DNA of 64,000 nucleotides, from contig JANLPG010000129.1 in assembly GCA_031367105.1 (NCBI GenBank), positions 24,690 to 88,689 of the forward strand. Reading direction: 5' to 3'. The translations under genes and the position numbers were made by a program. The notes under the pieces are model-generated. The model was not told where the DNA came from. It was given only the letters and a program-made list of their open reading frames with translations, and ran no database searches. Shown piece by piece: positions 2,924 to 14,285 of this stretch. The DNA comes from Gemmatimonadota bacterium. Its GTDB lineage: Bacteria; Gemmatimonadota; Gemmatimonadetes; Gemmatimonadales; GWC2-71-9. The number at the start of each line of letters is the position of its first letter. Within the stretch, counting starts at the first letter, position 1.

Positions 2924-3367
2924 TCAGTCGGCCGCCTCGACCTTGACGTGCCCCCGCATTCCCAAGGGGGCGTGCGGATCGCACTGGAAGTAGTAGCTCT
3001 TCCCCGGCGCGAAGCTCACCGGCACATCGAAGGTCTGCCCCGGCAACTGGAGCAGGTCGCTCGCGGGCGGGAGATTCGGCATGCCGGGGTTGCTGTCGGG
3101 AAGAAAATGGACGTTGTGGACACCGACCCCGAGCGTAAAGCGCAGCACGTCACCTGGATGCGCTTCGACCAGCTTCGGCTTGAAGTAGCTGCCGGTTTCG
3201 TCGGTGATCATCTCGATGGTGATGACCTTTCCGGTGGCAGCCGCCGCCGGTTCCGGCGCACCCGGAGTGGTCCCCGGCGCCGACGCGTCCTTGCCCCCAC
3301 CGCAGGCGAGGGAAAAAATCACGGCCGTCAATGGAACAACAGACCGAAAAGGCAATTGGATCGACAT
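2924..3367 (-). CDS. type-1 (blue) copper cupredoxin lipoprotein, plastocyanin/pseudoazurin-like
   Basis: The ATG at 3367 is preceded by AGGGAG 6 nt upstream. The leader has a lipobox (VIFSLAC). The type-1 Cu ligand pattern is present as HNVHF ... FQCDPHAPLGM (His, Cys-x2-His-x4-Met). It is the last gene of the nos operon. Confidence 0.8.
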   Translation of the reverse strand: MSIQLPFRSVVPLTAVIFSLACGGGKDASAPGTTPGAPEPAAAATGKVITIEMITDETGSYFKPKLVEAHPGDVLRFTLGVGVHNVHFLPDSNPGMPNLPPASDLLQLPGQTFDVPVSFAPGKSYYFQCDPHAPLGMRGHVKVEAAD

Positions 3368-3390
3368 CACGACTCCCTTGATGAATGACA

Positions 3391-4182
3391 CTAGAAACTC
3401 TTCCGTTGAAACGCGCGTGCCGCAATTCCGAGCGGCAGCACCAGCCAGAGGGAGAGCGTTGCAACCAGCACCGCGCGGCCTGCTCCGGTCCCGAGTGCGT
3501 GTTGCAGGACGGCCCCGGTGTAACCGAGCAACGCGGAGGCATCGGTCCCGAGCAGCAGCAGGACGCGGGCGAGGTCGAGCGGGTTAAGCGCCAGCATCAC
3601 CAGCATTGCTCCTTCCAGTGGCCGCTGCCCGAACAACATCGCGATCAGCAGGATCACACCATCCCAGACGACGGCCGCAACCAGCCAGGCACCGAGTGCG
3701 ATTCCCAGCGCCCGGACCCGATCATCGACCCTGAGCGCCACCAGGAAGGCGAGCGCGGTGCTGATGAAGGTCAGGATGATCGCGGCGCCCAGCACCGGGA
3801 CCAGCCGGGCGCCCAGCGCACCGAAGACCATCCCGTGCCACACGAACGGAGCGATCAGGCCGAGCGAGATAGCGACCGCGAGCGGCAGTGCGTTGCCGAG
3901 ATAGAGACCGAGAAAGAGCCGGCGACGCGAGACGGGCTGCGCGAGCAGCAATTCCGTGAGGTCCCGCGCGTGATGCACTTGCACCGTACCGGCGACGAGC
4001 CCCACCAGTGGTGTCGCGATCAGCACGATATCGATCAGCGACACCACGGTCGTAGCACCGCCGCCGCCGAAGCGAAGCAGCAGCTCACCCGCGACGGCAA
4101 GGGTGACCGCGATTCCGACCAGCCAGCGACCGCGGATTGCTTCGCGGACCGCCAGACGAAGGAGTGGCAGCAGGGTATTCAC
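3391..4182 (-). CDS. nosY: ABC-2 type permease NosY
   Basis: Polytopic membrane protein directly downstream of nosF. The GTG at 4182 forms a GTGA overlap with the nosF stop. The track ORF extends to 4218, but that would overlap nosF by 40 nt. Confidence 0.75.
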   Translation of the reverse strand: MNTLLPLLRLAVREAIRGRWLVGIAVTLAVAGELLLRFGGGGATTVVSLIDIVLIATPLVGLVAGTVQVHHARDLTELLLAQPVSRRRLFLGLYLGNALPLAVAISLGLIAPFVWHGMVFGALGARLVPVLGAAIILTFISTALAFLVALRVDDRVRALGIALGAWLVAAVVWDGVILLIAMLFGQRPLEGAMLVMLALNPLDLARVLLLLGTDASALLGYTGAVLQHALGTGAGRAVLVATLSLWLVLPLGIAARAFQRKSF

Positions 4183-4904
4183 GCGACCGCCAGGATGGCC
4201 CGGCCCGACAGCAGGCACGCGATCGCGCGCTCGAGCGTCGGTTGACCGGTGGTGACTTTCAGCTCGTGGACGCCACCCTGCCAGCGCGCGACCCCCTCCG
4301 TGAGGAAGAGGACGTCATCTGCCAACTCCTCCAGCTCCGGGAGGACGTGCGACGTGATCAGCACGGTTGCGCCAGCAGCACGATCGGCGAGGATTCGATC
4401 CTTGAGGACGCGCGCGGCCACCGGGTCGAGCCCCGCAGTCGGCTCATCCAGTACCAGCAGTTCCGGCCGGAATGCAAACGCCAGCACGGCATTGACCTTC
4501 TGCCGCGTCCCGCCTGACAGCACCCCAAGCGGACGATCGAACGCCTCCCCGAGGTCGAACGCCTCCGCGAGCGAGAGCTCCGGCACGATCGCTCCCCCAC
4601 GCAATGCGACCAGCGTGTGCAACAATTCCCGCCCGGAGAGGTGCGCCGGAAAGCGGGCGATCTGCGGCATATAGCCGATGGTCGCACGGTACTTGGGGCT
4701 GCCATCCAGGAAATGGCTTCCCAGGGCAATCGTGCCGGCCTCGGGGGTCGCCAGCCCGAGCAACAGCTTCAGCAAGGTGGTCTTCCCGGCGCCGTTCGGG
4801 CCCACCAGACCGGTGACTCGCCCCGTGGCGATCTCGGCCGTGAGACCCTGCAGGACGGTGCGACGGCCGAAACGCTTGGAGACACTCCGAAACCGGATCA
4901 TCAC
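4179..4904 (-). CDS. nosF: ABC transporter ATPase NosF
   Basis: Walker A GPNGAGKTT, ABC signature LSGGTRQK and Walker B LLVLDEP are all present. There is an ATGA overlap with the nosD stop. Confidence 0.85.
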   Translation of the reverse strand: MMIRFRSVSKRFGRRTVLQGLTAEIATGRVTGLVGPNGAGKTTLLKLLLGLATPEAGTIALGSHFLDGSPKYRATIGYMPQIARFPAHLSGRELLHTLVALRGGAIVPELSLAEAFDLGEAFDRPLGVLSGGTRQKVNAVLAFAFRPELLVLDEPTAGLDPVAARVLKDRILADRAAGATVLITSHVLPELEELADDVLFLTEGVARWQGGVHELKVTTGQPTLERAIACLLSGRAILAVA

Positions 4905-6121
4905 TCCCCCCCAGTTGGTGCGCGCATCAGTGGTCGCGCATCCACGACATTCGGTGGCGTCAGCACCGGTAGCACCCGTTCGGCAGCATCCAGCAAGCGG
5001 ACGAAGAGCGAGCGCTGCAGCAACAACGCCGGCTGGGCGTGCTCCACCAGCAGGGCGAAGAGCCGCACCGGATGGTGTGGCACATCACCGCGACCGTCGT
5101 GGTTGAGATCCCAGCCGCGGTAGGACTCCCACCAGTTCCCGGTGAAGGTGGCGGACGTCCCACGGCCATTCACGGCCACATCAAAGGAGTTGCGGCGGAA
5201 GGCGTTGCTGCTGAACTCGGCTCCCGAGGTGCTGCCGAACAGCCGCAGTGCCCAGCCGTTTTCTTCGAACCGGTTGCCGGTGGCGACCAGGCGATCGGCG
5301 CCATCGGCGAGCAATCCGGTGGTGTTCCGTCGGAAGAGGTTGCCCGTGAGATGCGCATCTTCGATCTCCTTGAGCAGTAGTCCGTAGGAGGTCGGTCCGC
5401 CGTTGTCGGCGAAGGTATTGCCTGACATCGTCACGACTTTGGTGTACATCACCGCCACCCCGCCACCGTTCGCCGCGAACGTGTTGCCCACATAGCGGGA
5501 GGAGTCCGAGTACATGAAGTGCATTCCGTAGCGGAAATTGTGCTCGCTGCGGTTGTTTCGTACCTCGGCGTCACGATTGAACTCGAGATAGATCCCGTCG
5601 CGATGTCCGCTGATCACATTGTCGTGAATCCTGGCGCTGCGTGACGACCACGAATGGACTCCGTTGCCGATCGCAGCCTCGCTCTTCCCCGCCACGCCAC
5701 TGATCCGGTTGAAGCCCACCTCGCAGCCGTCGGTCGCGGCGAGATAAATCGCGAAGAAGGTGTTGTCGAACTGATTCCGCAGCAGGTGACAGCGATGGGC
5801 GTCCTCCACCCGCAGCGCGGCGCGATCTTCCCGGAACGACCCGCCGGTCGCGGTGAAGCGGAGCCCCTGCACCGTGACGTCATCGGCGCGCACCACCATC
5901 AGGGCGTGGGCCATTTCGCCGTCGAGCAGCGCGCCGGGCTCGCCGATAATGGTCAAGGGCCGATCCACCACGATCATCGGCTCGCGGTAATGCCCCGCCT
6001 TCACCACCACGACGCCCCCGCTCGGCGACGCCGCCACGGCGGCAGCCACCGTCTGAAACGGCCCGGTGGGGGAGACCACGAGTGGCAACTGCAATGCGGC
6101 CAGCAGCGCGAGGATATTCAC
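4901..6121 (-). CDS. nosD: periplasmic copper-binding parallel beta-helix protein NosD
   Basis: Signal peptide followed by repeated beta-helix turns (GNTFAANGGG, GNTFADNGG, GNLFRRNTTG, GNRFEENGW, SNAFRRNSF). It sits in the canonical position between nosZ and nosF. Confidence 0.85.
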   Translation of the reverse strand: MNILALLAALQLPLVVSPTGPFQTVAAAVAASPSGGVVVVKAGHYREPMIVVDRPLTIIGEPGALLDGEMAHALMVVRADDVTVQGLRFTATGGSFREDRAALRVEDAHRCHLLRNQFDNTFFAIYLAATDGCEVGFNRISGVAGKSEAAIGNGVHSWSSRSARIHDNVISGHRDGIYLEFNRDAEVRNNRSEHNFRYGMHFMYSDSSRYVGNTFAANGGGVAVMYTKVVTMSGNTFADNGGPTSYGLLLKEIEDAHLTGNLFRRNTTGLLADGADRLVATGNRFEENGWALRLFGSTSGAEFSSNAFRRNSFDVAVNGRGTSATFTGNWWESYRGWDLNHDGRGDVPHHPVRLFALLVEHAQPALLLQRSLFVRLLDAAERVLPVLTPPNVVDARPLMRAPTGGE

Positions 6122-6702
6122 GACGCCGCTCGACGAGGGCGGCTAGTCCACCAGATCAGTGCGGCACCGGTGAACGCCACGCCGAGGGCGAGTGCCGCAC
6201 CACTGGGCCAGGATGATGCCGTGAAGTTGAGCAGCTGCTTGCTCCCGATCAGCGGTGGCTGATAGCTCATCCCCGGAATCACGATGATGGCACTTTCCAT
6301 ATCGAGGTGATGCCCGTAGTTGTATTCCCAGCGCCAGAAGTCCCAGAGTCCTGCGAGGGCGAGGGCTGCAAACGCCACCAGCCACCCCATCAGCAGCCGG
6401 CGTGAGTTGCGCACCGCTGCCACCACCCCCGTGAGGACGAGGAGCGCCAGAATCCACGGCATCCAGCGCAACTCGGGGATGGCATCGGCGTGAATCGGCA
6501 TCATCCCGATGTAATGGTTGAGTCCATTGATATTGTCGAGATCGTTCGGCTTGATCCCTTTCACGGTATAGGCAAAGATCCGCATCCCCAGTCCCTCGGG
6601 ATATTGCGGCGCCAGCAGGCGCACCTCCCAGAGTGGCCAGAGTGCTGCGGCAGCAGGGAGCACCGCCGCGAGGGCCAGGAGGAGACGCGCCCGCCGGGTC
6701 AT
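6118..6702 (-). CDS. 4-TM membrane protein, NosB-like by position and topology
   Basis: 194 aa with four hydrophobic segments. It starts 3 nt after the nosZ stop and overlaps the nosD start by 4 nt. Clade II nos clusters characteristically have a small polytopic nosB directly after nosZ. The assignment rests on context, not on a recognised motif. Confidence 0.5.
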   Translation of the reverse strand: MTRRARLLLALAAVLPAAAALWPLWEVRLLAPQYPEGLGMRIFAYTVKGIKPNDLDNINGLNHYIGMMPIHADAIPELRWMPWILALLVLTGVVAAVRNSRRLLMGWLVAFAALALAGLWDFWRWEYNYGHHLDMESAIIVIPGMSYQPPLIGSKQLLNFTASSWPSGAALALGVAFTGAALIWWTSRPRRAAS

Positions 6703-6704
6703 CT

Positions 6705-8729
6705 TCAGCGCCCGCCCGCGGCGCCGTGCTGGTGCTCAGCAACCTGGGGCACCGCCTTCAATCGGCTGATCTGGGTCGCAGCCTTGGCCGACGTATTGGC
6801 CTTCAGCGGCACGTTGGCCCCCGCGGCGCTCACCCGGATGTACCCCTGCATCTCCTGGTGCAGCGCCGAGCAGAAGTCGGTGCAGTAGAACGGATAGACG
6901 CCAGGCGACCTGGGGATCCACAGCATCGAGCGCGTCTCGCCGGGCTGGAGGATCAATTCGGCGGTGTTCATTCCCAGCACTGCGAAGCCGTGCAGGATGT
7001 CCCAGTCCTGCTCGATGTTGGTGACGTGGAAGTAGACGCTGTCGCCGACCTCGACTCCTTCGAGGTTGTCGGGTGCGAAATGGCTGCGAATCGCGATCAT
7101 CTTGATGTGGACCGCCTTCCCCGCTCGCGTGATGTTCCCCTCGGACTCGGCGCGCGTCACCCACGGCGAGCTGTTCTTGGCAAGCGAGAAGAACTTCACC
7201 TGCTTGTCCTTGAGTACGCTGGCCGGCAGTGCCTGGGCGTAGTGCGGCTCGCCCTGCGTCGGGAAGTCGAGCAACAGCTTCATCTTGTCGCCGCTGATGT
7301 CGTAGAGCTGCGCCGACTGCGCCAGCTCGCCGCCAGTCGGGAGGTAGCGATCCTTGGTGATCTTGTTCAACGCCAGGAGATACTTGCCCCACGGCTTCTT
7401 CGAGTCGCCACCAGGAATCATCAGGTGGCCCGGTGAGTAGTAGGTCGGCGCCCGATCGAGCACTTCCCACGTCCCCAGCTTCCACTTCACCACTTCCGAT
7501 GAAATGAACATCGTGGTGTATGCGTTGCCCTTCCCGTCGAACTCGGTATGCAGCGGGCCGAGCCCCGGCTTCTGGACTTCGCCGGCGATGGTCGCCTCGT
7601 ACTTGAGCACCGGAATCCCGCCGATGTCTCCGTCGAAGGCCTTGGCCGCAATCGCTGCCTTGATCTTGGTGGCAGAGTGCACCGGGATCACGGTGGCGAG
7701 CTTGCCGCCGCCCACGATGTACTCACCGGTCGGGTCGATATCGACGCCGTGCGGCGACTTCGGTGTGGGCAGCAAGTAGACGACGCCGGGGCAGGCTGCG
7801 GGATCCAGCATCTGGACCGAGGTCCGGAATTCGACTTTCGCCTGGCGTGTGTCCGGATCCATATAGTTGTGGGCATACCGCGACGGGAAGGCCTTTGCCT
7901 TGCCCTCTTTCACGCACTGTTCGGCCAGCTTCCAGTTGACCGCAGCGATGTAATCCTTGTCGTTCTTCGACGCGTTCAGCTCGAGCTTGGTATATGCCTG
8001 CTCGGTGTTGTAGGTCGTGAAGAAGAACCACCCCTCCGACGGTCCCTTGCCGGCGTGGCCGAGGTCGTAGTTGTAGCCCGGCATCAGCAACTGGAAAGCA
8101 ATGTCCATCTTGCCGGGAACATCCGCCTTGATGAATGAGAGCGTCCCCTTGAAGTTGGTCTTGAAGCTCTCAATCGGCACATCGGCGTTCGGGATCGGCA
8201 CCGAGAACCGGGTGGCCGAGACGATGTATTCCGAGTTCCCGGTCGTGAACGGCGAAGCGTGGCCACCGGCCGCGTTCGGAATCTGGAGGATTTCGTCGGT
8301 CTCGAAGCGCGTCAGGTCGATCCGGGCGACGCGTGGGGTGTTGTTGCCGTTGATGAAGAGCCAGCGCCCGTCGGGAACGCCATCGGTCTGTGACAGTTCC
8401 GTGTGGTGGGTGTCATCCCAGGGTACCGTGCCGAAGGTGGTCTCGAGCATCGGCTTGGTCTCTTCGTTGTAGCCATAACCGTTCTCGGGAAACTGCGAGA
8501 AGACCGGAATCGTCTTCAGCTGCCGACCCGATGGCAGGGCATACACCGTCACCTGCCCGCTGAATCCACCGGAGAGGAAGGCGTAGAACTCGTCGTATTG
8601 CCCTGGCGCGACATACACGGCCTTGGCGGCGTCACCGTTCACCAGATCCTGCGGTGCGGGCGCCTTGCACCCGACCGTCACGACCAGTGCGGTGAGAAGA
8701 ATGGACCAACGAATGCGGGAACACGGCAT
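6705..8729 (-). CDS. nosZ: nitrous-oxide reductase NosZ, Sec-type (clade II-like)
   Basis: CuA motif YCTDFCSALHQEM (C-x3-C-x3-H-x2-M) near the C-terminus and the DDTHH motif in the propeller region. The ATG at 8729 is preceded by GAGG. The leader MPCSRIRWSILLTALVVTVGC has no twin-arginine. The track ORF extends to a GTG at 8774. Confidence 0.9.
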   Translation of the reverse strand: MPCSRIRWSILLTALVVTVGCKAPAPQDLVNGDAAKAVYVAPGQYDEFYAFLSGGFSGQVTVYALPSGRQLKTIPVFSQFPENGYGYNEETKPMLETTFGTVPWDDTHHTELSQTDGVPDGRWLFINGNNTPRVARIDLTRFETDEILQIPNAAGGHASPFTTGNSEYIVSATRFSVPIPNADVPIESFKTNFKGTLSFIKADVPGKMDIAFQLLMPGYNYDLGHAGKGPSEGWFFFTTYNTEQAYTKLELNASKNDKDYIAAVNWKLAEQCVKEGKAKAFPSRYAHNYMDPDTRQAKVEFRTSVQMLDPAACPGVVYLLPTPKSPHGVDIDPTGEYIVGGGKLATVIPVHSATKIKAAIAAKAFDGDIGGIPVLKYEATIAGEVQKPGLGPLHTEFDGKGNAYTTMFISSEVVKWKLGTWEVLDRAPTYYSPGHLMIPGGDSKKPWGKYLLALNKITKDRYLPTGGELAQSAQLYDISGDKMKLLLDFPTQGEPHYAQALPASVLKDKQVKFFSLAKNSSPWVTRAESEGNITRAGKAVHIKMIAIRSHFAPDNLEGVEVGDSVYFHVTNIEQDWDILHGFAVLGMNTAELILQPGETRSMLWIPRSPGVYPFYCTDFCSALHQEMQGYIRVSAAGANVPLKANTSAKAATQISRLKAVPQVAEHQHGAAGGR

Positions 8730-8826
8730 ACCAGCCTCGTGTGAAGGGCCCCACTGGGGCCGGTCGGGTGTCACACCGCCGTTGCGGGGACACGACAGCA
8801 GTTTCGGGTCAGGAGCGTCGCGGCGC

Positions 8827-8842
8827 TGTGATGCTTGTCACA
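8827..8842. promoter_or_regulatory. perfect TGTGA-N6-TCACA palindrome (candidate Crp/Fnr-family operator) upstream of nosZ
   Basis: The sequence TGTGATGCTTGTCACA is centred about 105 nt upstream of the nosZ ATG. Apart from its first base and one spacer base it repeats the element at 9664-9679. Confidence 0.5.
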
Positions 8843-8858
8843 CCGGCGGCCCATCGCA

Positions 8859-9287
8859 TCAGGGGCGCGCCCGGATCCGGGTGAGCGACAACGCGGCGCT
8901 GTCGAGCGTGCGCCAGAGATTCCAGGCGAGGAGGTAGGCGCCGATCGCCGAGGCGGTCGCACCGACGCCGAGGATTGCGCCACCGGTCACGGGATCGTGG
9001 AGGCGCCACCCGAAGCCAAGGGCCATCGCGGCCACGCCGATGTTGGCGAGGAGCAGGTGACTCCGCGCCATCGCGGGGGAAAAGAGCGGTGTCGCCGCAA
9101 AGCGCGGAAAGACGTGGTAGGCGACGCCGGAGATCATCATCGTGACGAAGCCGAGCAGCATCAGATGCAGATGGGCAGTGCGATACACTCCCCACGCCGG
9201 GTGCACTGCCATCGCGACCCCGACTGACACACCGGTCACCAGCCAGAGCAGCGAGGCCCGCAGGAATCCGGTGGTGTACGCTTCCAT
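8859..9287 (-). CDS. 4-helix membrane protein resembling helix X region of heme-copper oxidase subunit I
   Basis: The ATG at 9287 overlaps the cupin stop (TGATG); an alternative start lies at 9302. There are four hydrophobic helices. The segment AHLHLMLLGFVTMMISGVAYHVFPRF has the same spacing as COX1 helix X [26 protein letters not shown]. Confidence 0.55.
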   Translation of the reverse strand: MEAYTTGFLRASLLWLVTGVSVGVAMAVHPAWGVYRTAHLHLMLLGFVTMMISGVAYHVFPRFAATPLFSPAMARSHLLLANIGVAAMALGFGWRLHDPVTGGAILGVGATASAIGAYLLAWNLWRTLDSAALSLTRIRARP

Positions 9288-9610
9288 CAGCAGACCCCGC
9301 AACAGCCGGCGATCAGGTGGACGGTGACCTCCAGCCCGGCCTCCCCGGCCGTAACGGCGTGGAGGACGTTCGGGTCGACCTGCACCCGATCGCCGGTCGC
9401 GAGGGGCGCTGCTGTTCCATCCGAGATGGTGCAGCTGCCCGAGCCTCGCGTCACGGTGATCAGGATGCGCGACGCGTTCCGGTGCGCTGGCAACTCCTGC
9501 CAGGGATCGAAGGTGATCGTGAAATGGCGGCCATCCGAATCGTCGCTGACGTCCGAAACGATCGGACGGCCAGCGGACGGTGAGATGGGAACTTCGGCGG
9601 ATGGCAGCAT
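9287..9610 (-). CDS. cupin-fold protein with Cys-rich C-terminus (AGCCGVC)
   Basis: The ATG at 9610 has GGAG 7 nt upstream. The small beta-rich sequence (ILITVTRGSGSCTISDG...GDRVQVDPNVLHAV) looks like a single cupin barrel. The terminal CCGVC is visible in the translation. Confidence 0.6.
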   Translation of the reverse strand: MLPSAEVPISPSAGRPIVSDVSDDSDGRHFTITFDPWQELPAHRNASRILITVTRGSGSCTISDGTAAPLATGDRVQVDPNVLHAVTAGEAGLEVTVHLIAGCCGVC

Positions 9611-9663
9611 CGGGTGCTCCAGTAAGGGTCGCCCCAATCGTCGCCGGAGGCCCCCGCCCGTGC

Positions 9664-9679
9664 CGTGACGCTTGTCACA
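9664..9679. promoter_or_regulatory. CGTGA-N6-TCACA palindrome in the divergent cupin / crp-fnr intergenic region
   Basis: The sequence CGTGACGCTTGTCACA lies 28 nt upstream of the regulator ATG (9707) and 54 nt upstream of the cupin ATG (9610). It shares 14 of 16 positions with the 8827-8842 element. Confidence 0.5.
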
Positions 9680-9706
9680 GAGCGGTTCCCGCGCTTCATT
9701 CGCTGT

Positions 9707-10405
9707 ATGCCATCGCTCGTCGCCGTCCTGCAGCAGATCCCGATCTTTGCCGAACTGGAGCAGCGTGTCGTGGCCCAGCTCGCCGCGCGCTGCGTGCCGC
9801 GAACCGTCGGTGAGGGGTTCACGCTCTTTCGTGCGGGAGAGCGCTGCGCGGGGTTGTACGTCGTGCTGGAGGGGCGGGTGCGGGTCTATCGGTCGTCACC
9901 CGATGGCCGCGAGCAGACGGTGGCGGTGGAGGGGGCCGGTCGCCCGGTGGCGGAGTTACCACTCTTCGACGGGGGCCCCTACCCAGCGAGCGCCGTGACG
10001 ATGACACCGAGTCAGCTGGTGTTCCTCCCGCGCGGTGAGTTTGAGCACGCCTTCCGCGCCGATCCCGATGTCGCCGCGGCCGTGGTGCGCTCGCTCGGCG
10101 GGCGATTGCGTCACCTGGTGCAATTGCTCGAGACGGTGGCGTTCCGGGATGTCGCCGCACGGCTGGCAATGCTGCTGGCCGACTACGCCGACCAGACCGG
10201 AGCAGCTCAGGGCGACGGCGTGGCGTTCGAGTTGGATCGGACGCAGGAAGAACTCGCTGCCGAAATCGGCACGGCGCGGGAATCGGTCTCGCGGGCGCTC
10301 AAGCAGCTGACCACCCGCGGGCTGATCCGGAATCGGGCCGGCAACCGCTTTCTGGTGGCTCCCAGCGAACAGTTGCGCGCCTGGGCCCGCACCGGTGGGA
10401 TGTGA
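9707..10405 (+). CDS. Crp/Fnr family transcriptional regulator (no FNR-type N-terminal Cys cluster; Dnr/NnrR-like by context)
   Basis: cNMP-binding-like barrel (FRAGERCAGLYVVLEGRVRVY) and a C-terminal HTH (TQEELAAEIGTARESVSRALKQL). ATG at 9707; the track ORF begins at 9665. Confidence 0.85.
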   Translation: MPSLVAVLQQIPIFAELEQRVVAQLAARCVPRTVGEGFTLFRAGERCAGLYVVLEGRVRVYRSSPDGREQTVAVEGAGRPVAELPLFDGGPYPASAVTMTPSQLVFLPRGEFEHAFRADPDVAAAVVRSLGGRLRHLVQLLETVAFRDVAARLAMLLADYADQTGAAQGDGVAFELDRTQEELAAEIGTARESVSRALKQLTTRGLIRNRAGNRFLVAPSEQLRAWARTGGM

Positions 10406-10451
10406 GACATCCGTCACAGCGGGCCGGCGGCACAGCCGACATCATTGCTCC

Positions 10452-11003
10452 ATGAGCACCGTCAATCAGATGGTCGACACGCCGCTGCCGGAGTTCGATC
10501 CCGCGCGAATCATCGAGCTCGATGTGCGCGAGTTGCTGCGCAGCGGCGGCGAGCCCCGCAGCCAGATTATCGCGGCCGCCGACGCCCTGCCCAAGGGCTA
10601 TGTCCTGCATCTCCGGACCACCTTCCGCCCCGAGCCACTCCTCAAGCTGATGCACCAGCGAGGGTTCCACTTTCATACTGCGGACTTTGGCGAGTCGGAC
10701 TGGTCCAGCTGGTTCTGGCGCACGGCCCCGCCTCCCACCGCGACCCGTCCCGGCAGCGGGAGCGGCATCGACCGCGAAGGCGCCGAGGACTACCGCCTGC
10801 TACCACCGCCGGAACCGCTGCTCCGCATCCTCGCGCGGATCAGCGCCGAAACGGCGCCGTTCGATGTCCTGCTGCCGTTCTATCCGGAGCCGTTGATCGC
10901 CCTGCTCCGCGACGAGCCGTGGTCGCTGGAGTTGGTGGCGGAGGCCTCTGATGGCGTGCGGGTGCGCTTGACGCCACGATCCGACCCGCCGTCGGAGGCG
11001 TAA
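10452..11003 (+). CDS. tandem DUF2249 domain protein
   Basis: Two repeats fit the DUF2249 pattern: LDVRELL...PKGYVLHLRTTFRPEPLLKLM...W and LPPPEPLLRILARI...FDVLLPFYPEPLIALL...W. ATG at 10452 (MSTVNQ). Confidence 0.65.
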   Translation: MSTVNQMVDTPLPEFDPARIIELDVRELLRSGGEPRSQIIAAADALPKGYVLHLRTTFRPEPLLKLMHQRGFHFHTADFGESDWSSWFWRTAPPPTATRPGSGSGIDREGAEDYRLLPPPEPLLRILARISAETAPFDVLLPFYPEPLIALLRDEPWSLELVAEASDGVRVRLTPRSDPPSEA

Positions 11004-12306: not shown

Positions 12307-13101
12307 TCAGGCGTGGGCGAGACCCCGATTCCGAGACGTCCCACGATAAAACACCACCGCCGTCGCGATCCAGAGCGGCAAGTCGCCGATCAGCTTCATC
12401 ACCAATCCGGCGAGCTGGATGTCTTCGTTGGCTGTAAAGTGTGCTGACACGCGCGGTGCCAGTTCGTAGAGCCGGTAGATCGGCCAGTCGGAGAACACCA
12501 TCATCATTGCGGGGATCGTCGGCACCACGGTCGCACCGAAGAGATATCCCATCATCCCGAAGACGCCCAGTCGGACCAGGCCGGCTGGTGCCAGAATCGG
12601 CCACCAGAGAAAGCAGCCCGCCACCAGCCAGGCAATGTCGATCGCGAAGGACCCCAGTTGGGTCGTCATCGCCGCATCGACCACCGACGGAAAATGCGTT
12701 GTCAGCACCAGGAGGTTATAGGCCAGCAATCCCGGCAGTGCCCCCGCGAAGAAGTGCAGCAGCCGGGAGCGGCGGGATCCCGCGGGAGCCAGCCGCTGCC
12801 AGCCATCGGCCGGTATGCTCCGCAGCAGCGATGGCGCCACCAGCAACGTGAGGGTCAGGAATTGCACCGTGTGCACGCTGGCCAGGTACCCTGCCCCAAG
12901 CTTGCCGACCGGCCAGTCGAGCGTCAGCAACAAGCCGACCCACGCGACTGCGAACCAGGCCGTCGGCCGACGCGACCAGCGTTGCCGGCGCCCCAGGATC
13001 CACCAGAACCCGCCGAGCAACAGGAGGAGGAGGTGCACCCCAGGATACCACTGCCAGTTCCAGTTCCACGGGAGTCCTGTTGCGGCGCACCACCACTGCA
13101 T
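12307..13101 (-). CDS. cytochrome c oxidase assembly factor CtaG (Bacillus caa3-CtaG type)
   Basis: 264 aa with about 7 TM helices, Trp-rich, and adjacent to Sco. It resembles the Caa3_CtaG family by eye (WPVGKLG...HTVQFLTL...FLWWPIL). Confidence 0.6.
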   Translation of the reverse strand: MQWWCAATGLPWNWNWQWYPGVHLLLLLLGGFWWILGRRQRWSRRPTAWFAVAWVGLLLTLDWPVGKLGAGYLASVHTVQFLTLTLLVAPSLLRSIPADGWQRLAPAGSRRSRLLHFFAGALPGLLAYNLLVLTTHFPSVVDAAMTTQLGSFAIDIAWLVAGCFLWWPILAPAGLVRLGVFGMMGYLFGATVVPTIPAMMMVFSDWPIYRLYELAPRVSAHFTANEDIQLAGLVMKLIGDLPLWIATAVVFYRGTSRNRGLAHA

Positions 13102-13186
13102 CGCTAGTTCGCTCCGCCAACGACATCGCTCCGCGCCGCTCCGACGACGCGACCCCTGGCTGCGGACTCGAGCGGGATTGAGTTAC

Positions 13187-13825
13187 TCACGGCGAGCGAC
13201 CGTACGCGACCAGCGCCGGAAGATCGTGCGCCCAGTCGCGCTGCCGGGTCCCGAACGGATACACCACTCGGCCCCGGCCATCGCGCGTGTAGGCGATGAC
13301 CGTGGCCGCGTGCCCCACACCATATCCCCCGCTGGCGTCACGCACGGAGTCACGCTCGGCGGGGAGGAGTTTCACCATCGCCTGTGCCGCTGCGAGCACC
13401 GAGTCGGAGGCGGTAAGCCCGATAAATGCCGGGCTGAATCCCTTCACCCAGTGGTCGAGCACCGACAGCGAATCGCGCGCCGGGTCGGTGGTCACGAAAA
13501 TCACCAGCACGTCGCGCTGGATCTCGTCGGGAAGTTTGTCGAGCACCGCAGCGATGTTCGCCAGGTGCACCGGGCAGATGTCGGGACAATGCGTGTATCC
13601 GAAGAACAGCAGTGTCACCTTTCCGGCCGTCTTCGCAACGAAAGGAAAGGGCGCCCCCTTCGAGTCGGTAAACGTGAAGTCGGGCTTGGCCACCGGCGTG
13701 GGCAATTCGGCGCCGAAAAATCCGCCAGGCGAAAGCGCTCGCTGCTCCCCCCCCCTGCACCCGGCCGCCGCGGCAAGCAAGCCAGCGGCGGGTACGACCA
13801 GCAGGGTCTTCAACAGCATCGTCAC
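13187..13825 (-). CDS. SCO1/SenC copper chaperone / thiol-disulfide oxidoreductase
   Basis: Thioredoxin fold with the diagnostic FGYTHCPDICP motif and a downstream His. The leader is lipoprotein-like (LLAAAAGC). Confidence 0.85.
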   Translation of the reverse strand: MTMLLKTLLVVPAAGLLAAAAGCRGGEQRALSPGGFFGAELPTPVAKPDFTFTDSKGAPFPFVAKTAGKVTLLFFGYTHCPDICPVHLANIAAVLDKLPDEIQRDVLVIFVTTDPARDSLSVLDHWVKGFSPAFIGLTASDSVLAAAQAMVKLLPAERDSVRDASGGYGVGHAATVIAYTRDGRGRVVYPFGTRQRDWAHDLPALVAYGRSP

Positions 13826-13874
13826 ACGATCTCGCAGGGTCAGGGTTCCGGTCCGTCCGTGGAGCCGTCAGTGG

Positions 13875-14285
13875 CTACTGTTCCAACACCTTGACGGAAT
13901 CCACATAATAGGCCGTCTCGCCGAAGCAGGTCGTCGGCACGCCCCGATGCTCGGCGTACTGCAGCACGACCCGTCGGCCGAGCCCGGCTGCGACCTGCTT
14001 CGCGACGGCCGCATCACGCACCGTAAAATTCCACAGCGTCGGCGCGACTCCTGGCACCGTGGTCATCGCGAGCTCGCCCTCCCACGTCTTGCAAACCCAG
14101 CCCTTGCGGGAAAACTTCTGGAGGATCCCTGCCCGGTCGCCCTCGGAGTATGACCAGTCAAGCGCCATCCCGACATAGATCGAGAAGAGCAGCACTGGCA
14201 CAACGACCACCGCCAAGGCGATCAAAAGCGGGCGACGCCGCCGGGGCGTCGGGGTTGGCTCGGAACTCGGGGTCAGGTCGGTCAC
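13875..14285 (-). CDS. membrane-anchored hypothetical protein
   Basis: 136 aa with good G/C third-position bias. A single N-terminal TM (LLIALAVVVVPVLLFSIYVGMAL) is followed by a soluble domain containing two Cys. No family recognised. Confidence 0.5.
   Translation of the reverse strand: MTDLTPSSEPTPTPRRRRPLLIALAVVVVPVLLFSIYVGMALDWSYSEGDRAGILQKFSRKGWVCKTWEGELAMTTVPGVAPTLWNFTVRDAAVAKQVAAGLGRRVVLQYAEHRGVPTTCFGETAYYVDSVKVLEQ

Follow-up and report, generated by a model that had tools for sequence, protein, structure and literature searches.

Single-unit "HCO homology" (HCOH) proteins, which are related to NnrS, were reportedly described by computational means by Pei, Li, Kinch, and Grishin in 2014 (Protein Sci 2014;23:1220). 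These proteins are said to be most similar to helices 9 to 12 of HCO/NOR subunit I, with the His pair conserved. The same authors reportedly proposed that single-unit homologs form homo- or heterotrimers in a denitrification/NO context that includes DUF2249. Their work on stand-alone four-helix homologs of the heme-copper oxidases (HCOs) is cited in two papers (PMC4602095, PMC11218638). No experimental follow-up on single-unit HCOH proteins was found in the open literature, and the gene cluster described here is not mentioned in the G. aurantiaca N2O paper.

The 142-residue membrane protein analyzed here is very probably of this single-unit HCOH kind. It shares with it the four transmembrane helices, an independent gene (a 142-residue ORF, with homologs of 142–165 residues), the strongest similarity to HCO helices 9 to 12, and conserved histidines at the heme-ligand positions. 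Since the kind was described in 2014, the four-helix protein belongs to a known, computationally described kind. A preliminary description of this DNA had claimed a stand-alone mini-protein without characterized function, which holds for experimental work and not for the kind as such. The subfamily in the window, the 64,000-nucleotide stretch of Gemmatimonadota DNA that was analyzed, is marked by the one-nucleotide coupling to a CCxxC cupin or an ScdA_N protein, by a tandem of two four-helix paralogs in relatives (TM4a/TM4b), and by a CRP-type box.

NnrS (PF05940) is a membrane protein that contains heme and copper and belongs to NO-response regulons; that copper is present besides heme was reportedly found by Bartnikas et al. 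in 2002. Its NO-protective role is taken from proteobacterial work. The four-helix protein falls into the same superfamily: the three-unit relatives P0172 (50.2 bits) and P0228 (56.1 bits) pass the Pfam NnrS threshold, and the match of the TM4b paralog falls on the final third of the NnrS profile. NnrS and the locus also share their setting, a regulon for NO and denitrification that a Crp/Fnr-type regulator controls. They differ in that NnrS carries 12 helices (three units) in one chain, whereas the window protein has four, and in that NnrS has no coupled cupin. The window protein itself gives no match to PF05940 at E ≤ 1.

CcoN (PDB-ID: 3mk7_A, 8smr_E) is the best match to the four-helix protein in both sequence and structure. 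Unlike CcoN, the window protein takes up one third of the fold and lacks the CuB ligands of helices VI and VII, and no CcoO or CcoP genes lie nearby; its neighbors are the cupin, nosZ, and the Crp/Fnr gene. The four-helix protein is not an oxidase subunit.

ScdA_N (PF04405) is the N-terminal domain of the RIC/YtfE iron-center repair proteins (RIC/YtfE/ScdA). Together with the redox-disulfide domain DUF1858, it resembles the cupin of the window in that Cys-bearing cytoplasmic domains take the same position, either as a separate, coupled gene upstream or as part of one chain with the membrane units. The window partner is a cupin, however, and only the Cys-rich C-terminal tail is common to both. 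The ScdA_N proteins carry CxCxC, and the DUF1858 protein P0199 ends in CCPEC.

Gene pair, nos cluster, and regulator

The pair consists of a cupin gene and the four-helix gene, which are flanked by a divergent Crp/Fnr gene and by the Sec-type (clade II) nosZ (Table 1). The plus-strand letters CATCA at the junction correspond to TGATG on the minus strand, so that the cupin stop and the four-helix start have one base in common, and this overlap implies translational coupling of the two proteins. The coupling had been claimed in the preliminary description, and it is borne out by the ORF coordinates and the minus-strand letters. The distances claimed there are accurate as well: 96 nt separate the cupin start from the divergent Crp/Fnr ATG, and 129 nt separate the four-helix gene from the nosZ ATG, with both ORFs and nosZ on the minus strand. 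A GGAG is found 7–10 nt 5′ of the cupin ATG. The GC3 of the two ORFs is 0.80–0.84 (cupin 0.80), as in the neighboring genes. Both ORFs have many conserved homologs, and the sequence features of the pair exceed chance. A scan of positions 8650–9760 gave neither consensus sigma-70 promoters nor intrinsic terminators. The sequencing runs that contain the locus are DNA runs from sediment and soil metagenomes, with none among RNA runs.

Table 1. Features of the gene pair and its surroundings in the window
Feature	Position	Strand	Remark
Plastocyanin-like cupredoxin gene	2924–3391	−	
nosY	3391–4218	−	ABC-2 permease
nosF	4179–4904	−	ABC ATPase
nosD	4901–6121	−	
Gene of 194-residue membrane protein	6118–6702	−	without family match
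Rest of nos cluster (the five genes above)	2924–6702	−	
nosZ, Sec-dependent (clade II) nitrous-oxide reductase	6705–8729	−	directly downstream of the pair; ATG 8729, alternative start GTG at 8774
Perfect CRP-type palindrome TGTGATGCTTGTCACA	8827–8842		between four-helix gene and nosZ
Four-helix membrane protein gene	8859–9287	−	142 residues; ATG 9287–9285, stop 8861–8859
His77 codon	9057–9059	−	cytoplasmic end of TM3
TM2, helix-X-like helix, AHLHLMLLGFVTMMISGVAYHVFPRF	9099–9176	−	residues 38–63
His58 codon	9114–9116	−	
His41 codon	9165–9167	−	
His39 codon	9171–9173	−	
TGATG stop/start overlap	9285–9289	−	cupin and four-helix genes
Cupin gene	9287–9610	−	107 residues; ATG at 9610, stop TGA 9289–9287
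Cys tail CCGVC	9290–9304	−	cupin residues 103–107
CRP-type palindrome CGTGACGCTTGTCACA	9664–9679		cupin/Crp-Fnr divergent region
Crp/Fnr-family regulator gene	9665–10405	+	divergent; start ATG 9707 or GTG 9665
DUF2249 protein gene	10395–11003	+	two matched stretches; start overlaps regulator gene end
Third, weaker CRP-type box	10403–10418		near DUF2249 gene start

NosZ scores 914.6 bits against TIGR04246 (cut-off 625), and the gene order of the nos cluster is kept in related loci. No gene of this cluster matches the NosR-, NosG-, or NosH-type families. Genes for Caa3-CtaG and SCO1 lie 3–4 kb from the pair.

The regulator is composed of the Pfam domains cNMP_binding and HTH_Crp_2 and carries no N-terminal Cys cluster. 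Its recognition helix RESVSR resembles RETVGR of CRP. The center of the palindrome in the divergent region lies ∼61 nt upstream of the cupin ATG, and at least 15 related loci have the same box, in the form TGTGAC-AAGC/AACC-GTCAC(G/A), ∼70 nt 5′ of the cupin gene. The equivalent position upstream of nosZ carries a box in 25 related loci, so the CRP-type box TGTGAC-N4-GTCACA is conserved 5′ of both the pair and nosZ. The box is not enriched across the window (three matches versus 1.09 expected, with three reached in 12 of 100 shuffles), and its significance is derived from the position conserved across loci instead of the window-wide count.

A homolog of oxidase subunit I

The Pfam COX1 profile (PF00115) matches the 142-residue protein with an E-value of 3.4e-9 and 36.5 bits (curated cut-off 34.8), and this significant match agrees with the CcoN profile and the Foldseek results. 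When a family profile built from 50 sequences was searched against the PDB, the cbb3 subunit CcoN was the sole match (whole-sequence E 5.6e-15 to 3.7e-10). Similarity is highest over CcoN residues 306–401 plus 418–465 (helices IX–XII), and weaker matches fall on the two other four-helix units (13–108 and 213–246). A phmmer search of the PDB with the 142-residue protein as a single sequence gave no relevant match. The AlphaFold2 model (pLDDT 92.1) takes on four helices (3–28, 30–63, 71–94, and 99–129), in line with the four hydrophobic helices and ∼142 residues claimed earlier, and the topology is predicted to be N-in/C-in. Foldseek ranks CcoN as the top match (TM 0.82, rmsd 2.7 Å), which is followed by aa3, bo3, and NOR. 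These results establish genuine homology between the 142-residue protein and subunit I of the heme-copper oxidases, and the protein very probably represents a stand-alone single evolutionary unit of that fold.

The preliminary description had compared TM2 with helix X of bovine/Paracoccus COX1. The peptide given there is exactly bovine COX1 375–400 (1occ_A), and the match is ungapped with the same spacing as claimed, with 10 of 26 residues identical, including both histidines, the later histidine, and F-P..F. The similarity is not confined to a copy of helix X, as had been claimed, since the whole four-helix repeat is homologous and lies closest to CcoN helices IX–XII. In the profile alignment, His39, His41, and His58 correspond to His345, His347, and His364 of Pseudomonas stutzeri CcoN, and His77 aligns with His384. 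CcoN His345 and His347 are heme-ligand histidines. The helices with the CuB ligands are literally absent, as had been stated, but His41 can also be equated with His207, a CuB ligand on helix VI, by a step that runs via the internal three-fold repeat of subunit I and assumes an ungapped extension of the CcoN alignment.

The two histidines are conserved in homologs near and far. His39, His41, and His58 are invariant among 50 close homologs, which have 27 invariant columns, and among 76 distant single-unit representatives that differ mutually by more than 50%, His39 is found in 74, and so is His41. The position of His41 is kept in all three repeats of three-unit relatives. His77 is nearly invariant in close homologs, and the 76 distant representatives have His at this position in 52 cases and Gln in 15. 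Met50 and Met51, which lie on TM2 between the His positions, are invariant or nearly so in the close homologs.

Cupin partner and relatives

The cupin of the window matches Pfam Cupin_2 (PF07883) with an E-value of 1.4e-5 and 25.2 bits, which is below the cut-off of 27.2. Its 107-residue homologs are annotated as PF07883, and a type-B relative scores 28.2 bits. The protein is cytoplasmic, as it has no signal peptide. Its C terminus reads HLIAGCCGVC and hence ends in the AGCCGVC that had been noted before. Among the cupins of related loci, all 16 of type A carry a CCxxC-type tail (CCGVC, CCGTC, CCPGC, CCEHC, CCDCC, and similar), which is lacking in the type-B cupins of nirK-linked loci. The canonical cupin metal site (HxH...E in motif 1 and H in motif 2) is absent across 42 cupins, including that of the window; only His43 and His84 are conserved among their histidines, and motif 1 reads P-x-H-R-N. 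Natural fusions between cupin and four-helix unit were not found among the N-terminally extended representatives P0177, P0246, and P0240, whose cupin-free extensions resemble mis-called ORFs. In Pfam and NCBIfam, the pair matches solely COX1-type and cupin families and none of the classical nos accessory families (nosR, nosX, nosL, nosD/F/Y, nosG/H/C), in accordance with the earlier statement that this is not a classical nos accessory gene.

An exhaustive search yielded 2136 representatives with one-, two-, and three-unit chains, and relatives of all three sizes match both the COX1 and the NnrS models. The three-unit relative P0121 is predicted to form a complete 12-helix oxidase core; its model (pTM 0.91) superposes on the entire CcoN with a TM of 0.79–0.80. 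Fusions that occur in nature are ScdA_N–three units–DUF1858 and one unit–DUF1858. As one repeat of the oxidase core that stands alone and retains the heme-ligand histidines, the protein bears on how the 12-helix catalytic subunit of oxidases and NO reductases may have arisen from a trimer.

Neighboring genes were typed by direct tblastn and family scans. The link to denitrification that had been suggested for the pair is reflected in the survey, in which nosZ or nirK lies in the flanks of 59 of 80 Gemmatimonadota loci with four-helix homologs; a NirK representative passes TIGR02376. The pair is placed directly upstream of nosZ in 25 loci and adjoins nirK in others. The Crp/Fnr gene is syntenic with the pair in 26 loci and the DUF2249 gene in 20, and in nirK-linked loci the pair occurs without regulator or DUF2249. 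In 60 of 75 related loci, the stop of the upstream ORF overlaps the ATG of the four-helix gene by one base. The upstream partner is either a cupin, with a CCxxC tail or without Cys, or an ScdA_N protein, and the alternation between cupin and ScdA_N was counted for the NO link of the pair. The divergent TM4b paralog follows directly downstream in 42 of the 75 loci. In several loci the gene directly upstream of the pair is SCO1, and six loci have a CopD-like gene directly downstream. The window holds no TM4b, nirK, ScdA_N, or CopD gene, and its closest relatives likewise have no second paralog.

Proposed function and competing readings

From the sequence comparisons, we lean toward the pair being a homotrimeric, heme-binding, NnrS-like module that handles NO. 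Trimeric heme binding by the four-helix protein is slightly more probable than not, and the NnrS-like, NO-protective role of the pair is a possible but more tentative part of this proposal. Binding of heme or copper by the pair is inferred in either case. Three copies of the four-helix protein would assemble into a 12-helix, oxidase-like bundle, which has indirect support from the CcoN-like core modeled for the three-unit relative P0121. As a second paralog is missing from the window and from its closest relatives, the assembly here would be a homotrimer. A b-type heme would be sandwiched near the periplasmic face by His39 of one copy and His41 of its neighbor, which would mirror His60 and His347 holding heme b in CcoN. 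The cupin would dock on the cytoplasmic side, where His58, Arg62, and His77 are close by, and expose its thiol tail at this site. Expression of the pair and of nosZ would be turned on jointly by the divergent Crp/Fnr regulator. Like NnrS, the pair would then handle or buffer NO or NO-damaged metal centers during denitrification and thereby protect the copper enzymes NosZ and NirK, while N2O itself would not be reduced by the pair. Since 42 of 75 loci carry TM4b and two-unit chains exist, hetero-oligomers or non-trimeric assemblies are possible as well. The neighbors are copper enzymes and some loci carry SCO1 or CopD, so copper or electron delivery fits this setting equally well.

The role of NosR comes from clade I organisms. 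The minimal clade II cluster of the window comprises nosZ, the 194-residue membrane protein, nosDFY, and the cupredoxin and is without NosR/G/H-type matches, and the conserved module sits at nosZ or nirK, which makes it an obvious candidate for an accessory factor. As a co-regulated membrane module before nosZ or beside nirK, it is a candidate accessory factor for Gemmatimonadota NosZ. The pair could replace NosR or NosGH: the heme oligomer and its Cys-tailed partner (thiol or Fe-S) would move electrons across the membrane and keep NosZ, or elsewhere NirK, reduced and active, or feed the cupredoxin of the cluster. The 25 loci with the pair directly upstream of nosZ and the nirK-linked loci agree with this, as do the recurring Cys-rich cytoplasmic partners (cupin-CCxxC, ScdA_N-CxCxC, DUF1858) and the position of the His pair near the periplasmic side, as in oxidases. 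We nevertheless regard a NosR-like role as unlikely, because neither a quinol site nor an Fe-S motif is recognizable, the type-B cupins of nirK-linked loci have no Cys tail, and the NnrS and ScdA_N relatives suggest NO stress instead of respiration.

Copper trafficking is a slightly less likely explanation. The CCxxC tail of the cupin would bind cytoplasmic Cu(I) and pass it to His and Met residues of the membrane oligomer, namely His58/His77, Met50/Met51, and His39/His41 in turn, and the oligomer would move it outward to load periplasmic NosZ and NirK. Both recurrent neighbors, NosZ and NirK, are copper enzymes, SCO1 and CopD-like genes border the pair in several and in six loci, respectively, and the Caa3-CtaG and SCO1 genes lie near it in the window. 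The (nearly) invariant Met50 and Met51 lie between the His positions on TM2, and NnrS was reportedly found by Bartnikas et al. to contain copper besides heme. On the other hand, His39 and His41 align precisely with the heme ligands of real oxidases, ScdA_N and Cys-less cupins replace the CCxxC cupin, three-unit relatives from other contexts often carry the TMMI motif as well, and copper export is normally carried out by P1B ATPases.

It is doubtful that the pair is, as a whole, a living ancestral homotrimeric oxidase core with three symmetric bis-His hemes, one per subunit interface, that is joined by a thiol-tailed cupin and stands in for NosR at NosZ and NirK. If true, it would be an unrecognized transmembrane redox or maintenance system in Gemmatimonadota, an important sink of N2O in soil. 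These bacteria possess clade II nosZ and are abundant members of agricultural soils (PMC9530729).

A membrane sensor is very unlikely; in this reading, NO or O2 would be detected by a heme in the four-helix protein and reported by the cupin to the divergent Crp/Fnr regulator or the DUF2249 protein. The synteny with both genes is fixed in nosZ-linked loci, the regulator itself lacks a Cys cluster, and two DUF2249 proteins of Thermus, DrpA and DrpB, have been put forward as nitrate sensors (PMC11218638). The nirK-linked loci, however, have the pair without either gene, and the pair bears the box of the regulator and therefore looks like a target instead of an input.

That the ORF is a decaying fragment of ccoN or ctaD, as the NCBI/JGI name and the marginal Pfam COX1 score alone would have it, is effectively refuted by the conservation data: intact ORFs of 142–165 residues occur in at least 376 species genomes with 27 invariant columns, the coupled partner and the promoter box are conserved, and the ccoN equivalog model TIGR00780 gives 16.8 bits (cut-off 583.15). 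Homologs are named 'cbb3-type cytochrome c oxidase subunit I' at NCBI and JGI. This name is a misnomer for the four-helix protein, and on proteins of ∼140 residues it can inflate oxidase counts in metagenomes.

TM4 as a single-unit homologue of heme-copper oxidases

TM4, the 142-aa four-helix protein encoded upstream of nosZ, scores 36.5 bits against the Pfam COX1 model, slightly over the cut-off of 34.8. A profile built from 50 close homologues (A1) and searched against the PDB matched only CcoN, subunit I of cbb3 oxidase (E 5.6e-15 to 3.7e-10). The main match takes in CcoN residues 306-401 plus 418-465, which make up helices IX-XII, and the other two four-helix units of CcoN (13-108 and 213-246) are matched more weakly. 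The AlphaFold2 model of TM4 (pLDDT 92.1) consists of four helices; in Foldseek, CcoN ranks first against it (TM 0.82, rmsd 2.7 Å), followed by aa3, bo3 and the NO reductases. The preliminary description had likened the protein to helix X of COX1. The peptide that it quoted is exactly bovine COX1 375-400, with a spacing that agrees with TM4, but the likeness is not limited to helix X, as TM4 is homologous over its whole length.

Counted along the profile alignment, His39, His41, His58 and His77 of TM4 correspond to His345, His347, His364 and His384 of CcoN. In the Pseudomonas stutzeri structure, heme b3 has His345 as its axial ligand, and His347 is one of the ligands of heme b. The weaker unit matches align His39 with His60, the second ligand of heme b, and His41 would fall on His207, a CuB ligand, if the alignment were carried six residues further ungapped. 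In a set of 76 single-unit representatives with pairwise differences above 50%, 74 retain His39 and 74 retain His41; Arg62 is kept in 73, His58 in 67 (otherwise Gln) and His77 in 52. Because the positive charges read from the sequence are concentrated in the helix 2-3 loop and the C-terminal tail, TM4 should be oriented N-in/C-in, which places its His-x-His close to the periplasmic side, like that of the oxidases.

An exhaustive profile search returned 2136 representatives at E ≤ 1e-3, of which 587 reach E ≤ 1e-10, with chains of one (~140 aa), two (~290 aa) or three units (~400-420 aa). One of their clusters, checked for names, has members from Nitrospirota MAGs. Several three-unit members exceed the Pfam NnrS threshold and match COX1 as well. 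The model of one of them, P0121 (413 aa, pTM 0.91), superposes on the entire CcoN (TM 0.79-0.80). P0121, P0153 and P0176 are 12-helix proteins of three similar units, each with a His-x-His, and could thus present six potential heme ligands in a three-fold arrangement. We consider it settled that TM4 is a single-unit homologue of heme-copper oxidases, and neither an oxidase subunit, a remnant nor a classical nos gene; the last point had already been made in the preliminary description.

The nosZ locus and its relatives

The cupin and TM4 genes lie on the same strand as nosZ (Table). Their TGATG overlap at 9285-9289 is real, since the cupin stop shares one base with the TM4 ATG, and the distances described for the pair are confirmed (96 nt from the divergent Crp/Fnr ATG at 9707, 129 nt from the nosZ ATG at 8729). 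At 0.80-0.84, the GC3 of both ORFs is that of genuine genes (window GC 66%). The source is an uncultured organism, and the locus was detected in freshwater-sediment and soil metagenomes and in no RNA run.

Features of the nosZ locus and the adjoining regulatory genes, in window positions
Feature	Position	Strand	Remarks
Plastocyanin/pseudoazurin-like cupredoxin	2924-3391	minus	last gene of nos cluster
194-aa membrane protein	6118-6702	minus	directly 3' of nosZ
Palindrome TGTGATGCTTGTCACA	8827-8842		perfect; between TM4 and nosZ
TM4 ORF, 142 aa	ATG 9287-9285, end 8859	minus	start shares one base with cupin stop
Cupin ORF, 107 aa	ATG 9610 to TGA 9289-9287	minus	C-terminus ...HLIAGCCGVC
Box with one mismatch	9664-9679		between cupin and regulator gene
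DUF2249 gene	10395-11003	plus	two matched stretches; overlaps Crp/Fnr stop by 11 nt
Weaker box	10403-10418		regulator/DUF2249 junction

NosZ is of the Sec-dependent, clade II type (TIGR04246 914.6 bits, cut-off 625). It may be anchored as a lipoprotein instead of being soluble in the periplasm, because its N-terminus MPCSRIRWSILLTALVVTVGCKAP (8666-8729, minus) ends in a lipobox-like TVGC. The 194-aa protein is followed by nosD, an ABC ATPase, an ABC-2 permease and the cupredoxin, which may be the electron donor of NosZ. The genes of this cluster (2924-8729) gave no NosL-, NosR-, NosX-, NosG- or NosH-type match. The 194-aa protein, without a Pfam or NCBIfam match, is kept at the same position in related nos clusters (53-75% identity) and, judged by position, is a candidate counterpart of NosB of clade II clusters.

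The opposite flank of the pair carries the Crp/Fnr and DUF2249 genes, whose 11-nt overlap suggests co-translation, an AI-2E transporter, a Caa3-type CtaG and SCO1. The latter two form a copper-assembly trio (12307-14285, minus, 3-5 kb from the pair) with a 136-aa protein that has no family match. The two closest related loci (L001, L002) show this trio in synteny as well. Oxidase structural genes are absent from the annotated ORFs between 1 and 26.5 kb of the window.

Relatives were counted in at least 376 species genomes, and 80 Gemmatimonadota loci were surveyed for context. In 25 of them, closest relatives included, divergent Crp/Fnr and DUF2249 genes face the order partner, TM4, often TM4b (a second, divergent paralogue), nosZ, 194-aa protein, nosDFY and cupredoxin. 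Many other loci carry nirK and nirV ahead of the pair, in some with SCO1 between or a CopD-like gene after; a NirK representative lies over TIGR02376 (358 bits, cut-off 296) and NirV belongs to the FGE-sulfatase family. With many contigs short, a nosZ or NirK-like gene is found in the flanks of 59/80 loci, which agrees with the proposed link to denitrification.

TM4b directly follows TM4 in 42 of 75 loci (among L003-L078, e.g. L038 3722-4177 and L009 4026-4469). Two TM4b sequences that were read keep only the His-x-His of the four conserved histidines and have lost His58 and His77; one of the two matches the last third of the NnrS model. No TM4b was found downstream of the pair or elsewhere in the 64 kb, nor between TM4 and nosZ in L001 and L002. 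Some relatives (L020, L039, L047, L064, L072, L074, L079) show a different N-oxide gene set. It comprises a ~480-630-aa protein before or after TM4, putatively nitronate-monooxygenase-like by its sequence, along with multicopper oxidases and another NirK-like protein that is divergent (188 bits, under the TIGR02376 cut-off).

The stop of the upstream ORF shares one base with the TM4 start in 60/75 loci, so the coupling persists although its partner differs between loci. CCxxC-tailed cupins (type A, as in the window) make up 16 of the partners and are nearly all nosZ-linked; 25 are related, nirK-linked cupins that lack the Cys tail and end in TPRPGSR; 13 are ScdA_N/DUF542 proteins ending in CxCxC. 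A canonical cupin metal site is absent, as only His43 and His84 are conserved across the cupins. ScdA_N is also fused in front of three-unit chains that end in DUF1858, and DUF1858 follows single units, one of which (P0199) ends in CCPEC. What recurs is a small cytoplasmic domain that bears thiols and is attached to the membrane unit on its cytoplasmic side.

Predicted regulation

The three boxes are of the CRP type (TGTGA-N6-TCACA, core GTGAC-N4-GTCAC), and their enrichment over the window alone is not significant. At equivalent sites, TGTGAC-N4-GTCAC(G/A) precedes the pair in at least 15 loci and nosZ in 25, and of 53 matches across 1.14 Mb of related loci, almost all fall on these two sites. 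The centres of the boxes before the cupin and before nosZ each lie ~61 nt from a possible start (cupin ATG; nosZ GTG 8774), the latter also ~105 nt from the ATG of nosZ. An FNR-type Cys cluster is absent from the regulator; its recognition helix RESVSR resembles RETVGR of CRP, in agreement with a TGTGA-type box. The interval from the pair to nosZ gave no intrinsic-terminator match. We infer that the pair and nosZ form one regulon with separate promoters. Because the first two boxes are position-conserved across many loci, a small regulon is predicted for the divergent Crp/Fnr protein.

Proposed role and earlier descriptions

TM4 would act as a trimer, here a homotrimer. Heme b would sit between neighboring copies, bound by His39 of the first and His41 of the second, on the model of His60/His347 in CcoN and of the three-unit relatives; the cupin would be a stoichiometric cytoplasmic partner. 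We favor a role like that of NnrS, which would be to cope with NO in the course of denitrification. The kinship with NnrS speaks for it, as do the partners ScdA_N and DUF1858 and the setting of nirK, nosZ, DUF2249 and Crp. Two rivals agree with much of this evidence. One is a transmembrane route, similar to NosR, for electrons to NosZ and NirK or for their maintenance, which would suit a nos cluster that lacks NosR/NosGH-type genes. The other is copper delivery by the pair, to which the copper-enzyme neighbors, the SCO1, CopD and CtaG genes, the CCxxC tail and a Met-Met/His ladder on TM2 point. A sensor is less likely, as the pair bears the regulator's box itself and occurs without the regulator in nirK loci.

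The observation of the preliminary description is confirmed and its interpretation partly supported: the homology to COX1, the conserved histidines and the tie to denitrification stand, but the cofactor binding is putative and the kind is not new. Pei, Li, Kinch and Grishin (Protein Sci 2014) reportedly described four-helix "HCO homology" proteins computationally as single evolutionary units. They are said to have considered that such units may form homo- or heterotrimers, to have counted NnrS as a protein of three units and to have noted a denitrification/NO context. TM4 belongs to a known, computationally defined, experimentally uncharacterized kind; no experimental work on any single-unit member was found in the open literature. 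Several details added here may or may not already stand in the 2014 paper: the conserved 1-nt coupling to a partner whose three kinds are cupins or carry thiols; the TM4a/TM4b tandem, lost beside nosZ in the window's lineage; the CRP-type box and its conservation; and the association with nosZ/nirK, here counted for Gemmatimonadota. A trimer topology like the HCO core is mentioned in a passage of PMC4602095. Passages of PMC11218638 mention the DUF2249 association and denitrification or detoxification roles, and the DUF2249 proteins DrpA and DrpB as proposed nitrate sensors in Thermus.

A word-indexed protein search gave 169 hits, 142-165 aa long and for the most part from Gemmatimonadota MAGs. 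Those that bear a name are called "cbb3-type cytochrome c oxidase subunit I", as are ~140-aa proteins at NCBI and JGI (e.g. P0007, P0014, P0017). The name is wrong, since TM4 reaches 16.8 bits against the ccoN equivalog model (cut-off 583), and such misannotation could skew oxidase counts in metagenome surveys.
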